Part shown: piece by piece, positions 18,172 to 27,206 of the stretch
Position numbering within the stretch: the first letter of the stretch is position 1
Layout of the letters: the number at the start of each line of letters is the position of its first letter
Source: a virus
Taxonomy: Duplodnaviria > Caudoviricetes
Reading direction: 5' to 3' (one strand)
IMG/VR virus record: IMGVR_UViG_3300025610_000117
Coordinates: 1-27,518 of that record
DNA length: 27,518 nucleotides
Position numbers and translations under genes: made by a program
The notes under the pieces: model-generated
What the model saw: only the letters and a program-made list of their open reading frames with translations
Told to the model about the DNA's origin: nothing
Database searches by the model: none

Positions 18172-18450
18172 CTAAATTATATTTACATAATCATCGTTGA
18201 TAATTGTCTGTATATGGATATAACCTTCGGGCCAGTAAGTGTAGGTTTCTTTAAGAGCCTTTGCTGTTCTATGTACTGATGCCTCAAAGTGTTCAAACAT
18301 TCCTAGCTCTTCTTTACAGTACCAAAAAGGTATGCGAAGTACTGGCTCAGCTGGTCCATGTTCTTCATAGTAAACAACAATTTCAGCGTCGTTGCTAACT
18401 GCATTGTCGTTTCCAAAGTGTTTAGTGTGTTTGTTTTCTGGCTGTTTCAT
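18172..18450 (-). CDS. hypothetical phage protein
   Basis: ATGA overlap with AOX stop; 92 aa. Confidence 0.65.
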   Translation of the reverse strand: MKQPENKHTKHFGNDNAVSNDAEIVVYYEEHGPAEPVLRIPFWYCKEELGMFEHFEASVHRTAKALKETYTYWPEGYIHIQTIINDDYVNII

Positions 18451-19010
18451 AAAGACATTCTCATATTAGCGTCAGCATGGCGCTGTTCATCGGCCCTAAC
18501 ATAGCGAATCATTGTGGCTAGGGTTGCTTCTGGTCCAAGACCGTAATAGTTACGGGCAGAGGCTGGGCAAACAACGTCTTCTGCTTTGCCACTTTCTACA
18601 AGATTTAAATATTCAGTATAACTATTAACTGCTTCTTGTTCAAAGTATGCTACCATACGATGCGCTGTTTTGGAAGAGCAAATGTATAATAGCAGGTAAA
18701 AATGCCAAAAAATAAATTGGGCCGCAGTAATTAAAAATCTTTCAAACACATTGGGCTGTGCAATTTCTAAAAAAAACATAAGATGCATACGCTCGTTCTT
18801 AGCTTCTTCAAGCATTTGATTTATGTAAGGATCATAGCCCCGCCGAAGGCGACGTAAACTTTTAAGATGTAACATCATGCCAGCCACCATAGCTGGAACA
18901 GCCGCTACTGTTTCAAGAACTACAGCACGGTGACCGTACCTTTTTGCAAAGAAAGTATCTGCTGTCCATTTAAAAAAGCTCGTCATGCTGCGAGCAAAAA
19001 AGTCTTTCAT
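18447..19010 (-). CDS. aox: alternative oxidase (ubiquinol oxidase, di-iron carboxylate)
   Basis: LETVAAVP.MV, EEA.NERMHL, YFEQEAV.SY and RADE..H motifs; GGAGG RBS. Confidence 0.93.
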   Translation of the reverse strand: MKDFFARSMTSFFKWTADTFFAKRYGHRAVVLETVAAVPAMVAGMMLHLKSLRRLRRGYDPYINQMLEEAKNERMHLMFFLEIAQPNVFERFLITAAQFIFWHFYLLLYICSSKTAHRMVAYFEQEAVNSYTEYLNLVESGKAEDVVCPASARNYYGLGPEATLATMIRYVRADEQRHADANMRMSL

Positions 19011-19643: not shown

Positions 19644-20573
19644 TTATGCCGCCTTTAAATATTTACGCAAAGTTGAAATAGAATCTTGCTGGCGCTTGAA
19701 CTGAACAGACGCAAGGGTATCTTTGTTACGAACATTATCAGCGTGGGTTGTGTAATCTGTTACTGCGTTATATGCAGCCCACTCTGTATTACCTAGTCGA
19801 GGTACATAAGTATCATAATAAACATTAAGAAGGTAATTAAAGCCTGTGTTTTGACGCTTAAGATGGTGTCGAACCATGTAGGGGCTAACGCCCTCGTTGA
19901 AGATAAGATCTTCTACTTGATCACCAATACCAACAATGTCTGCAAACATTAGACAAGCGTGGATAGGCTCAATAGAGTTTGTATACATACGCTTCCAAAC
20001 TTCACGCTCTTCTGTAAAGAAATCTAAAGACTTTACAATGGTTCTTGAAGCTTTATCAAGATCTAAGTTAAGGGTGTGATTACCTTTGAAGACCGCAACC
20101 TCCCCAGAAATAAATACTTGGAGATTCGTACACGCTTGTTGGATTGCCGCCGCACTGATGACAAACGGAAAGCTACTGTCAATAGATGTTGTAGCCAGTA
20201 AACCCAATGAGGCGGTATCACCATCTGGAGTTTCATAAGTATGAGCAGGCAACTTATACTTTACAAAAGATCTTGCACCGTCGTGACTCACTGCGATCTG
20301 TTCGCTGATGCCATCGGTATTCAGGCCACTACGCAATATAATTTCTCGCGCAGTTTTGATAACGTCTTTAGGGGCTACCGCTTTGTGACGAGACGAGTGA
20401 ATACCTAAAGCTTTCTTAGTATCGGTGCGATAGGTCACCCACTTATCAGTTTCATGATAACTATAATCAGAACTAAACAACGCAGGTGTTGTAGCAATAT
20501 CAAAGTCTGCGTCACCAAAGCCCCCGAAAGTATCGGAGGCGTTAGAGTTAAACATATTAAACACATTAGACAT
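19644..20573 (-). CDS. DUF932/DUF945 family protein
   Basis: ACTNL and WAAYNAVTDYTTH motifs; GGAG RBS. Confidence 0.85.
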   Translation of the reverse strand: MSNVFNMFNSNASDTFGGFGDADFDIATTPALFSSDYSYHETDKWVTYRTDTKKALGIHSSRHKAVAPKDVIKTAREIILRSGLNTDGISEQIAVSHDGARSFVKYKLPAHTYETPDGDTASLGLLATTSIDSSFPFVISAAAIQQACTNLQVFISGEVAVFKGNHTLNLDLDKASRTIVKSLDFFTEEREVWKRMYTNSIEPIHACLMFADIVGIGDQVEDLIFNEGVSPYMVRHHLKRQNTGFNYLLNVYYDTYVPRLGNTEWAAYNAVTDYTTHADNVRNKDTLASVQFKRQQDSISTLRKYLKAA

Positions 20574-23764: not shown

Positions 23765-24266
23765 CAGTTTCGAGGTAAGCCATAATAATATCAAGCTTCG
23801 CTTCGAAGGTAGCAAGTTTCTTGTCGGTTGCATCCTGTCGCTTTGTGATGGCATCAAACCGTGCTTGGAACTCAGAGAGTTCTGACGTATCCGCTTGAAT
23901 CTTTTTAACGGTGGTTGTTTTCTCAGCCTTCGGCTTCGAAACCTTCGGAGTATCCTTAATGACAGCCTTAGTCTTCTTAGCCTTAACAGGCTTAGAAGTC
24001 ATCATGTTGGTAAACTTCTTTGGAATCGTTTCAGCTTCGAAGAAGCGACTCACATCGGCATGAGTGATAGGAGTTTCAGTATTTTCATTCTGAAACTTTA
24101 AGAGGATAGCGCTGAAGATTTTGGAGAGTCTGTAAGACTCCGAAGGTGTTTTGCCACCGACCTTACCAAAGTGCTTGGCTACAGCATAAAGCTGTCGTGA
24201 TGAGGCGGTGCGATTCCCATCGACGTTAACGAAAATCTCTGATTTTTGAAGGTTCGAAATGCTCAT
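23751..24266 (-). CDS. first early gene; protein with Lys-rich linker and C-terminal coiled coil
   Basis: GGAG RBS 8 nt before ATG at 24266; KPVKAKKTKA...KPKAEK tract. Confidence 0.75.
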   Translation of the reverse strand: MSISNLQKSEIFVNVDGNRTASSRQLYAVAKHFGKVGGKTPSESYRLSKIFSAILLKFQNENTETPITHADVSRFFEAETIPKKFTNMMTSKPVKAKKTKAVIKDTPKVSKPKAEKTTTVKKIQADTSELSEFQARFDAITKRQDATDKKLATFEAKLDIIMAYLETDPDA

Positions 24267-24325
24267 GTTCATTACTCCGTAATGGTTTTAGGTTTGAAGC
24301 AACGCTCTGTCGCTGTTGCCATTCC

Positions 24326-24355
24326 ATTAAGGGCAGAGTTTCGAAATTTTTGCAA
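24326..24355 (-). promoter_or_regulatory. candidate early promoter
   Basis: TTGCAA, 18 nt, CTTAAT upstream of a structured leader. Confidence 0.4.
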
Positions 24356-24435
24356 CCTCTTTCCCTGCGCATTATGCGGTTGTGAAAGAGCGTGTGATGT
24401 GATCGGGTGAGAAAACTCAGCGGTGGATTTTTACT

Positions 24436-24755
24436 CAATATAGAATATATTGGAAGTTGTTGGAATCATTGGAGATTTTGGAATCGAGTTATAAATCTTT
24501 AAAGATTTCTAAAGGTTTCTGGAGCTGTCCACTAGAGAGTCTTTAAAAATTTTATAAATTTTCTATACGCCTCATGCGAGACTGAGAAAATCTTTAGAGA
24601 TTTTCGAAGTCTTTAGGGGTACGCAGGTGCCCATGCCCCCTCCCCCGTATATATATACATGCTCAAACATTTTTGGAGATTTTTGGAGTGTCTACCAGTT
24701 GGCCCCACAGACCTTTAAAGCCCAGACATAAAAAAAGGCCCACCGGCCTTTAAAG
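24436..24755. repeat. short-repeat and palindrome region; probable genome terminus/terminal-repeat junction
   Basis: TTGGA at 24450/60/69/78 and 24673/83; CTTTA(A/G)(A/G)(G/A) six times; palindromes 24493-24508, 24586-24605, 24647-24658; located between the divergent arms upstream of terS. Confidence 0.6.
24730..24751 (-). terminator. intrinsic terminator
   Basis: AAAGGCC-GGTG-GGCCTTT stem with a run of 7 U on the - strand. Confidence 0.8.
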
Positions 24756-24810
24756 AGACACCCACGATAGTGGGCGAGTAGATGTATATATATGCACCTC
24801 TGACGGGTAC
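24730..24810 (-). ncRNA. putative ~81-nt small RNA with three stem-loops
   Basis: Bounded by a perfect sigma70 promoter and an intrinsic terminator; no AUG or RBS inside. Confidence 0.7.
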
Positions 24811-24817
24811 AAATATT

Positions 24818-24846
24818 ATTATACACCTGTATTTCAATTTTGTCAA
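24818..24846 (-). promoter_or_regulatory. consensus sigma70 promoter (leftward)
   Basis: TTGACA (24846-24841), 17 nt, TATAAT (24823-24818). Confidence 0.88.
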
Positions 24847-24879
24847 TGAAATAATACCAAAAAAAGATAAATAAAGTTC

Positions 24880-24908
24880 TTGACAAAGATACAATATAGG
24901 TATATAAT
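24880..24908 (+). promoter_or_regulatory. consensus sigma70 promoter (rightward, packaging operon)
   Basis: TTGACA (24880-24885), 17 nt, TATAAT (24903-24908). Confidence 0.88.
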
Positions 24909-24915
24909 GTATAAC

Positions 24916-25320
24916 ATGGAAACTAAAAAAGAATTGACAGTAAAACAACAAGACTTTCTTGACAATCTTATTGCTTGTGGAGGCAATGCACGTCAAGCTG
25001 CTGAACTAGCAGGCTATGCAGCAGGAAGCTACACAGCAGTTGTAAAAGCTCTTAAGTCTGAGATACTAGATTTAGCTGAAGGCGTGTTGGCCGTAAACGC
25101 ACCTAAAGCGGCTCTGAAGCTCGTTCAAGTTATGGAGAGCGATGAGCCTATCCCTCAAGCTAATATTCGTGTACAAGCCGCACAGACGCTCCTAGACCGT
25201 GTAGGAGTTGCAAAGAAAGAAAGGCTTGATGTTAAAGTTGAAACGCCAAGTGGATTGTTTATTCTTCCGGCTAAAGCTCCGACTATTATTGAAGATGTAG
25301 AATATGAAGAGACGGACTAG
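24916..25320 (+). CDS. terS: terminase small subunit
   Basis: HTH LTVKQQDFL...GGNARQAAELAGY; AAQTLLDRVG; upstream of terL; ATG 24916 at the predicted +1. Confidence 0.8.
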   Translation: METKKELTVKQQDFLDNLIACGGNARQAAELAGYAAGSYTAVVKALKSEILDLAEGVLAVNAPKAALKLVQVMESDEPIPQANIRVQAAQTLLDRVGVAKKERLDVKVETPSGLFILPAKAPTIIEDVEYEETD

Positions 25321-25531
25321 TAGTACAATTCCATTTGGTTACAGGTTAGTAGATAATGATTTTGAACACATCGAAGAGATACCCAGCGAACTTGAAGCTT
25401 TAAACAAGATACTACCGATGATTAAATCAAAATCTTTGTCTCTACGCGAGGGTGCGTTGTGGTTGACCCATGAAACTGGTCGCTCTATATCCCATCAAGG
25501 ATTACAAAAAATAATCAAAAAAGATGGATAA
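25304..25531 (+). CDS. small DNA-binding protein (recombinase-domain/HTH-like)
   Basis: STIPFGY...SLRE.A.WL..ETGRSISHQGL. Confidence 0.7.
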   Translation: MKRRTSSTIPFGYRLVDNDFEHIEEIPSELEALNKILPMIKSKSLSLREGALWLTHETGRSISHQGLQKIIKKDG

Positions 25532-27206
25532 GAACGATTGGGATTTAAACCCACAAAACTATTTACAAAATGAAGACGGTAGCTTTAAGCTAAAAGCTGA
25601 TGGCACCCCCAAGAAAAAACCCGGAAGGCCAAAAGGCTCAAAGGGCAGGGGATACAACTATCACTCAAGAACTAAAGCAAAACAAGAAGCTTCAAAAAAA
25701 GTAAGGACAAAAAAGAAAAAAATAGCGCAGGCACGTTCCGCTATCTCACGATACCAAAAATCTGTTGAGAATACCGAAAAAGCCCTAGACTTGCTAGAAG
25801 ACAACAACAAAAGTAAAGTTGTTGAAGAGACGTTTGTAGAAGAAGCAGCATCTTCGCTCAAGACTGAGTTGAAAGAGAATGTTATATTTAGTCCTAATGA
25901 GGGACCACAAACTGATTTCTTGGCTGCGGGTGAAACAGATGTATTGTACGGCGGTGCGGCTGGTGGAGGCAAAAGCTATGCGATGTTGGTTGATCCACTT
26001 CGCTTTGCACATAGGGGAGCGCATAGAGCATTAATCCTGCGACGTTCTATGCCAGAGTTACGAGAACTTATCGACAAATCTCGTGAACTTTATCCCAAAG
26101 CCTTTCCCGGCTGCAGATATCGTGAAGTAGAAAAGCTTTGGAATTTTCCAAGCGGTGCAAAAGTTGAATTCGGTTTCTTAGAACGAGATGCAGACGTATA
26201 TCGTTATCAAGGACAAGCATACAGTTGGATAGGTTTTGACGAAATTACCCATCTCCCAACCGAATTTTCTTGGAACTATTTAGCTTCACGATTACGAACA
26301 ACTGATTCAGAAATAGTACCTTACATGCGCTGTACAGCAAACCCCGGCGGTTCTGGCGCACAATGGGTTAAGAAAAGGTACATTTCACCATCACCACCTA
26401 ACGAGTCTTTTATGGGTGATGATGGAATTACACGTAAGTTTATTCCAGCAAGATTGAATGACAATCCGTATCTGGCACAAGATGGTCGATACGAACAAAT
26501 GCTAAAAAGCTTGCCGCCTACTCAGCGCAAACAGTTGCTTGAGGGTAACTGGGAAATTGCAGAAGGCGCAGCATTTACAGAGTTTGACAGGCATCTCCAT
26601 GTCGTTGAGCCGTTTGAAATCCCACTACACTGGGAACGAACCAAAGGACTTGACTATGGTTATGCATCAGAATCAGCTTGCGTTTGGGCCGCACTTGACC
26701 CTAGCGACGGAACGCTGATTATATATAGAGAGTTATATAGAAAGGGTCTTTTAGCTACAGAGTTAGCAGAAATGCTTACTAACATGGAACTAAATGATCC
26801 AACTTCTGTCAGAGGCGTATTAGATACAGCGTGTTGGTCACGCACAGGAACTACTGGCCCGACAGTTGCAGAAACCCTAATACAAGGTGGACACAAATTA
26901 CGTCCTGCAGATAAGAACCGTGTTGCAGGAAAAATACAGATACATGAACACTTAAAAGTTCAACCATCTGGCAGGCCACGAATGCAGATATTTAATACTT
27001 GTCCTAATCTGATTCGTGAACTACAAGGCATTCCGCTTGATAGAAATAATCCTGAGGATGTTGATACACACGCTTCGGATCACGCTTACGACGCACTACG
27101 ATACTTAATTATGTCTAGGCCACGAATAAATGATCCGCTAAGTCAAATACGTAATTTACAGCGTGAACAACACTTTCAGCCTTTCGACTCGACGTTTGGT
27201 TACTAA
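25524..27206 (+). CDS. terL: terminase large subunit
   Basis: Walker A YGGAAGGGKS, Walker B WIGFDE, TANPGG coupling motif, RNase H GLDYG and DHAYDALRY. Confidence 0.95.
   Translation: MDKNDWDLNPQNYLQNEDGSFKLKADGTPKKKPGRPKGSKGRGYNYHSRTKAKQEASKKVRTKKKKIAQARSAISRYQKSVENTEKALDLLEDNNKSKVVEETFVEEAASSLKTELKENVIFSPNEGPQTDFLAAGETDVLYGGAAGGGKSYAMLVDPLRFAHRGAHRALILRRSMPELRELIDKSRELYPKAFPGCRYREVEKLWNFPSGAKVEFGFLERDADVYRYQGQAYSWIGFDEITHLPTEFSWNYLASRLRTTDSEIVPYMRCTANPGGSGAQWVKKRYISPSPPNESFMGDDGITRKFIPARLNDNPYLAQDGRYEQMLKSLPPTQRKQLLEGNWEIAEGAAFTEFDRHLHVVEPFEIPLHWERTKGLDYGYASESACVWAALDPSDGTLIIYRELYRKGLLATELAEMLTNMELNDPTSVRGVLDTACWSRTGTTGPTVAETLIQGGHKLRPADKNRVAGKIQIHEHLKVQPSGRPRMQIFNTCPNLIRELQGIPLDRNNPEDVDTHASDHAYDALRYLIMSRPRINDPLSQIRNLQREQHFQPFDSTFGY

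Follow-up and report, generated by a model that had tools for sequence, protein, structure and literature searches.

Introduction

Phage T7 ties the processing of its genome ends to its own RNA polymerase. The T7 promoter phiOR doubles as an origin. The M-hairpin, about 190 bp to the left of the terminal repeat, is the basis of a hairpin model for terminal-repeat duplication. At the T7 right end, phiOR lies at 39229 with a TA-rich stretch behind it and then gene 19.5; further on come a long imperfect palindrome near 39587, CCTAAAG repeats and the terminal repeat, from 39778. The pRNA of phi29 has about 120 nt, a conserved multi-helix fold and loop-loop pairing.

According to PMC3276506, the T7 polymerase pauses at the concatemer junction and engages the terminase; the M-hairpin is mentioned in PMC4281155. 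Among the Zobellviridae, the terminal repeats of ICBM1, ICBM2, RIO-1 and VpV262 measure 172, 159, 121 and 138 bp. PMC6775973 places the terminal repeats of these related two-arm phages where the arms diverge and describes a conserved G+C-rich 5' end. For T7-like podoviruses without a polymerase, which include abundant groups of SAR11 and SAR116 phages, we found no description of how the ends are marked.

In the present study, we analysed one virus record in full (IMGVR_UViG_3300025610_000117; 27.5 kb, about 53% complete), which is called the window below. A preliminary description of this DNA had noticed a small RNA with a degenerate inverted copy of part of its sequence in a putative genome terminus, and had asked whether it is a guide, decoy or packaging RNA.

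Results

Phage type and gene context

The window belongs to an HTVC103P-type podovirus. Its - strand encodes a T7-type DNA polymerase, a primase-helicase and a ribonucleotide reductase, its + strand encodes TerS and TerL, and the two diverging arms are separated by 24272-24937 (Table 1). TerS is 55-57% identical to the putative TerS of HTVC103P and HTVC115P. No RNA polymerase was matched among the 30 proteins of the window, in a genome about 53% complete, and none was annotated among the HTVC115P genes seen. The search of the window for tRNA and tmRNA was negative, and Rfam gave no match in it at E values up to 1. A minimum of GC skew near 24000 was considered as a marker of the end and set aside, as the skew tracks gene direction.

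An ORF of 75 aa without PHROG or Pfam match stands between terS and terL (25304-25531, +), and ORFs of similar size occupy the same place in HTVC103P and HTVC115P. On the - strand, the window also carries a gene of the DUF932 family (19644-20573) and a gene resembling alternative oxidase or plastoquinol oxidase (18447-19010; PF01786, E 5e-60), the latter likely an auxiliary metabolic gene.

Table 1. Positions of the genes and of the promoter, hairpin and box features in the window
Feature	Position	Strand	Basis or remark
First gene of the replication arm, 173 aa	23751..24272	-	no family match
Tentative direct terminal repeat, rich in CTTTRRAG-type repeats	24470..24660	.	hints; borders uncertain by tens of bases
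TGGC.WCCTGC core and tail of the box; forms the GGGTAC-GCAG-GTGCCC hairpin in the window's clade	24617..24635	-	
11-nt G tract of the box	24636..24646	-	
(TA)n tract within the box, forming the left arm of the 12-bp match and the predicted site of the mature left end	24647..24660	-	
AAAATGT motif of the box	24667..24673	-	sequence
CTRGTWDACA-type motif, part one of the box	24689..24698	-	single copy in genome
Predicted intrinsic terminator, giving an RNA of about 80 nt in the window's clade	24730..24751	-	terminator-like hairpin 24751-24734
Second hairpin of the predicted transcript, window's clade	24759..24776	-	fold
(TA)n tract behind the hairpin, right arm of the 12-bp match	24782..24793	-	alignment
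5' hairpin at the predicted transcription start (about 24811-24810)	24793..24811	-	fold
End-facing sigma70-type promoter, TTGACA-17-TATAAT	24818..24846	-	consensus match, 12/12
Second sigma70-type promoter, facing terS	24880..24908	+	consensus match, 12/12
Terminase small subunit (terS)	24937..25320	+	phrog_51, E 1.8e-5; PF03592 below cut-off
Terminase large subunit (terL)	25524..27206	+	62-66% identity to HTVC103P/104P/115P

Promoters, 5' hairpin and predicted transcript

Among the 79 terS relatives that had 220 nt or more of upstream sequence, 78 carried both back-to-back promoters. The single relative without the module, L078, has unrelated sequence ahead of terS.

RNAalifold on a MAFFT alignment of 61 5' ends gave no consensus structure because the stem registers shift in the alignment, and we therefore used an arm-swap test. 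In the 56 of 61 clusters that it covered (the remaining five had no landmark), the 5' hairpin had a mean energy of -7.0 kcal/mol with its own arms and -5.7 kcal/mol with swapped arms (0 of 20000 permutations). The 5' hairpin thus co-varies across clusters. The sense strand folds better than the antisense strand in 41 clusters and the reverse holds in 14. TATA occurs at +22 to +47 in 50 of 61 clusters, against 16 of 61 in a control window. The conserved part of the RNA is this hairpin and TA tract, only about 30 nt.

The preliminary description spoke of a small RNA. A promoter and a terminator-like hairpin do bracket about 80 nt, which fold into three hairpins (z -3.9, 0 of 200 shuffles); the discrete transcript is a prediction only. 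No discrete transcript was seen in the read data: the RNA runs X15-X18 consist of contigs, some of which bridge the two promoters and may thus derive from DNA, and they speak neither for nor against the RNA. A terminator was predicted in 13 of 98 clusters, spread over several lineages, and by a looser rule in 17 of 131 distinct elements; as predicted in this way, a discrete 80-nt RNA is the exception among the clusters. Rfam searches of 18 related loci gave nine sub-threshold matches, none at the gathering score.

No conserved ORF was found in the module, and the 98 clusters held four unrelated short frames. In L066 (about 2058-2327, -), L067 and L074 hairpin and box are separated by a 90-codon frame in which a VAGIRG motif is repeated; the frame has no Pfam match and is placed where T7 has gene 19.5.

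The box and its distribution

At 130-340 bp past the end-facing promoter stands a box composed of GTATATATA, a G- or C-tract and TGGC.WCCTGC. Spacing within the box is kept. On the promoter side, the spacer up to the box core measures anything from 130 to 337 nt, and CTTTRRAG-type repeats occur in 47 of 61 spacers. A motif related to CTRGTWDACA is present in 44 of 61 clusters. Of the 131 elements, 85 have an 11-nt tract rich in G and 32 one rich in C; in the other 14 it is mixed. Its polarity is opposite in L114 and L125 despite the same 5' RNA, with the flanks keeping their orientation, which suggests micro-inversions or a need for the geometry of a GC run over its sequence. As a possible protein-binding site, judged from sequence, we note a CTAGTTWACA-type motif that recurs about three times in the end regions of L081 (HTVC103P) and L083 (HTVC115P), once beside the terS promoter. 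The box itself was considered as a sigma70 or sigma54 promoter and rejected on inspection for misfit of the spacing.

For the comparison, 80 loci were gathered through terS, 120 through a pattern for the box and 120 through a pattern for promoter plus hairpin; about 260 and about 490 stored stretches match the box pattern and the promoter-plus-hairpin pattern, respectively. By our rule, promoter and box occurred together in 172 of 201 candidates, 120 of which had been found through the box itself, and these gave 131 distinct elements in 61 clusters. The 29 misses include truncated contigs, chance hits of the pattern, three loci with an inserted frame, and variants. Loci found through promoter plus hairpin had terS adjacent in 101 of 116, and the box was downstream in 45 of 76 by the rule and 57 of 76 by a profile, against 0 of 78 in the control direction. 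The 19 profile misses comprised four loci without terS and 15 with a variant box by eye. The fixed order of promoter, hairpin, TA tract, CTTTRRAG repeats and box beside terS is shown in about 100 clusters from a large group of aquatic phages, and the non-coding unit and the box are conserved on that scale.

HTVC103P, HTVC115P and HTVC033P are cultured carriers of the module, with promoter, hairpin and box-like motif in the same order by eye. The box is present in HMO-2011 and CRP-1, but no end-facing consensus promoter was found in these two, in phiM6 or in ICBM1; the promoter is therefore not needed in all relatives. A subfamily of 17 clusters is without the (TA)n box. In a subfamily including L241, L254, L258, L260, L262 and L265 we observed a TTGCA-type alternating stretch, a GC tract and a TG(G/T)CCC core, and predicted terminators are more frequent there.

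A host origin of the element was rejected: in prokaryotic genomes totalling 596 Gb the pattern matched about 120 times, and none of these places (0/120) had terS or the box. When the region and one box were compared with cultured phages by blastn, all matches were at chance level. The fetched records of HTVC103P-type and HMO-2011-type phages carry no annotation at the module, and a look for mapped ends of these phages returned none.

The inverted match between RNA and box

The reverse complement of 24649-24660 recurs exactly at 24782-24793 (12 bp) and that of 24625-24630 at 24794-24799 (6 bp), and 24617-24632 reads GGGTAC-GCAG-GTGCCC, all as first noted. The wording "inverted copy" holds for the two matches taken singly; they are colinear only with 18 nt looped out, since they abut in the RNA but are 18 nt apart in the box, and those 18 nt (24631-24648, the C/G tract) are without counterpart in the RNA. 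The best local alignment of RNA and box is the 12-mer alone. This 12-mer, mostly (TA)n and self-complementary, is matched in direct orientation too (D6, 12 of 13).

Shuffling the intergenic region 2000 times with dinucleotides preserved gave an exact inverted pair of at least 12 nt in 1.8% of cases; the match thus exceeds simple chance. Some inverted pair of at least 12 nt is present in 17 of 58 homologous regions. The window RNA matches 10 of 61 cluster boxes at 12 nt, its own included, and all 61 at 8 nt or more.

Tests of pairing between RNA and box

About 25 pairing tests were made in all, and the p values below are uncorrected. For the TA tracts, the longest inverted match averaged 6.84 nt with the own box and 6.88 nt with foreign boxes (p=0.67), direct matches were about as long as inverted ones, and the duplex energy of the TA segment with its own TA box gave p=0.16. 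The 12-mer is broken on either side without compensation in the near relatives L005, L014, L015 and L020. The co-variation looked for between RNA segment and DNA box was thus absent for this tract, and the guide, DNA-mimic or dimer role suggested for the AU tract is unsupported. Since both sides conserve (TA)n, which is its own complement, co-variation is blind to generic (TA)n pairing, which is compatible with this result; its 6-8 mostly A-U pairs would be weak.

For the 5' hairpin, by comparison, pairing with the own G/C tract is favoured over foreign tracts by about 1 kcal/mol out of 16 (p=0.0014 in 61 clusters; p=0.006 in 37 further clusters). Within subfamilies the excess gave p=0.0007 in 94 of 98 clusters, four being too short and dropped. 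It appears in the inverted orientation only and is lost on shuffling, six controls were null, and composition and run length, tried as its cause, do not account for it. No fixed register was found (best mean 7.3 of 21 matches). A swap between sister pairs gave p=0.02 on the tested sequence itself and 25 against 19 (p=0.68) on independent sequence, and L116 and L117 are counter-examples, ranking 61 and 59 of 61.

The 5' module can fold back on the box over at least 8 bp in 20 of 98 clusters, the window included, and over less than 2 bp in 47 of 98; the own box did no better than a foreign one (p=0.17). As single-stranded DNA, the - strand of the window pairs both TA tracts (z -2.4).

The box as a genome end

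The region had been taken for a putative terminus, and this remains likely from the ORF-free gap between the arms, hints from contig and read ends, and the likeness by eye of the box to repeat starts of related phages. Contig depth over 24489-24643 was 114 against 42-52 in DNA run X2 and 394 against 99-182 in X5; in X1, one contig spans the whole region. Contigs end at 24650 (X15) and 24655 (X12), and a branch enters adapter at 24647 (X16). Of the 120 box loci, 15 have a contig that stops in the flank past the box and 4 one that stops ahead of it (p=0.019; L186 was left out, as it is not a contig end), and early-gene loci gave no informative contig ends. Perfect palindromes with arms of at least 12 lie within 250 nt beyond the box in 14 of 53 relatives, against arms of at most 6 in 28 control coding windows. 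Such palindromes could break assemblies and mimic contig ends, and strain mixtures or duplicate reads could mimic the raised depth and the end signals.

The mapped repeats of ICBM1, ICBM2 and RIO-1 open with alternating purines and pyrimidines together with a C tract, and by eye their sequences resemble the box; the VpV262 repeat start looks different. The box profile gave no score on ICBM1, ICBM2, RIO-1, VpV262 or phiM6 and no match at the ends of MQM1, Lyrsu02, RHph_N3_19, CHOED and Slicky01. In phiM6, a box-like motif recognised by eye precedes the PhageTerm cut by about 56 nt; the authors of the phiM6 work termed this cut a pac site (PMC6256558). For the box as a genome end there are several hints, none decisive.

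Discussion

Among the described systems, the right end of T7 and T3 is the closest in layout. The analogy to transcription-coupled T7 end processing is apt. Both have an ORF-poor end region, a promoter that faces the terminal repeat (whose position is predicted here), a TA-rich stretch directly behind it, short repeats (CTTTRRAG-type here, CCTAAAG-type in T7), and a T7-type DNA polymerase and primase-helicase. In contrast to T7 and T3, the promoter here is of the sigma70 host type and not one for a phage polymerase, some lineages have a predicted terminator, and no conserved 19.5-like gene is present. The hairpin stands at +1, whereas the T7 promoter is 360 bp from its palindrome, which is also longer; the hairpin here is short, and 109-314 bp separate it from the box. 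Here promoter and terS point away from each other, whereas the T7 promoter is co-directional with terL. Because the promoter is not of the phage-polymerase type, the module is not a member of the phiOR family.

The Zobellviridae share the two-arm genome with ends in an ORF-free gap, but ICBM1 has neither an end-facing consensus promoter nor the hairpin, and the box profile recognises none of the four. Of the HTVC103P-type pelagiphages (HTVC103P, 104P, 115P, 033P), the first three have a TerL 62-66% identical to that of the window phage. The analogy to phi29 pRNA gained no support: both are small non-coding units near a genome end, but the window phage has a two-subunit terminase, there is no Rfam match, and a conserved multi-helix fold is absent from the short conserved part.

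From this comparison we give about an even chance to the reading that the module works in cis, as a T7 phiOR-like right end that is read by the host sigma70 RNA polymerase. Reading by the host polymerase is favoured because no polymerase gene was seen in the window or HTVC115P. The box would mark the concatemer junction as a DNA signal, and cutting in, or just before, its TA tract would produce the mature left end. The host polymerase would fire from the end-facing promoter toward the genome end, and the open complex, or a short nascent RNA with its hairpin, would mark the right end for terminase loading and/or the start of replication. Read-through into the box would be dispensable, because several lineages have a predicted terminator 55-110 nt past the promoter. 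The 12-bp inverted match would arise from the self-complementary TA tract in both modules; occasional template switching may have contributed, the region being rich in palindromes.

A stand-alone RNA would account equally well for the terminators predicted in 13 of 98 clusters. Such an RNA would bind a phage or host protein in trans through its 5' hairpin and AU tail, as a decoy, regulator or packaging helper, and its location at the end would be historical. The perfect promoter, the co-varying hairpin, the better folding of the sense strand (41 against 14) and the terminators predicted in several separate lineages and in HTVC115P all suit it. We nevertheless hold it unlikely: conservation is limited to about 30 nt, 85 of 98 clusters are without predicted terminator, the spacer length varies widely, RNAalifold gave no consensus and Rfam no match, and the element remains beside terS and the box.

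The hairpin could also act as DNA, with a nicked or folded-back strand priming terminal-repeat duplication, as in the M-hairpin model of T7, and transcription opening the site. Its distance from the TA box (109-314 bp, median 168) recalls that of the T7 imperfect palindrome from its repeat, about 190 bp; both TA tracts pair in the single-stranded - strand of the window, and the long palindromes and the tract flips point to fold-back events. Against these stand a stem that is weak as DNA (mean -3.5 kcal/mol) and a fold-back that is nearly absent from about half of the clusters and equally good with a foreign box, so that we regard this role as quite unlikely.

We see a slim chance that, in marine podoviruses lacking an RNA polymerase, a short host-transcribed RNA engages the box or the terminase, either by loose pairing of G/C and AU stretches or by serving as a tag bound by protein; here the hairpin and AU tail would license cutting and terminal-repeat duplication, as an RNA-assisted end-processing system distinct from pRNA.

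The RNA guide originally proposed, in which an R-loop with the - strand of the box, or mimicry of the box by the RNA, would steer end processing, appears improbable. It draws on the 12-bp match, on TA tracts conserved on both sides and on the replicated own-partner excess of the hairpin with the G/C tract. The TA tracts themselves gave no co-variation (p=0.67; p=0.16), the excess has no fixed register and failed in the independent sister swap, the G/C tract flips with the RNA unchanged, and breaks of the 12-mer stay uncompensated. The 17-cluster subfamily without (TA)n box, and the box without end-facing consensus promoter in HMO-2011 and CRP-1, also argue against it. The palindromes and tract flips suggest that the excess could be a mutational footprint of template switching. 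The RNA-DNA match is thus real but likely a by-product, not a guide; the element is real and wider than first noted, and the specific guide idea is weak.

A plain promoter that serves early genes across the concatemer junction or insulates the terS promoter, with hairpin and box unrelated to it, is highly improbable, for although it points at the replication arm across the junction and L066, L067 and L074 have a 90-codon frame behind it, the predicted terminators would block read-through in 13 of 98 clusters and the co-variation of the hairpin demands a separate cause.

With the cis-acting, host-read right end as the preferred reading, the module is a candidate end-marking system made of a host promoter, a conserved RNA hairpin and an end box, and the box would predict the genome ends of a few hundred metagenomic contigs. 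In a search mostly of literature outside subscription journals, we found no published description of a promoter-hairpin-box element, and the accessible parts of PMC9960094, PMC10914365, PMC2366019 and bioRxiv 10.64898/2026.02.12.705533 contain none. The sequence behind T7 phiOR (L479, 39229-39265) resembles the 3' arm of the hairpin with its TA tract in some relatives, L139 among them, a likeness that may be due to chance.
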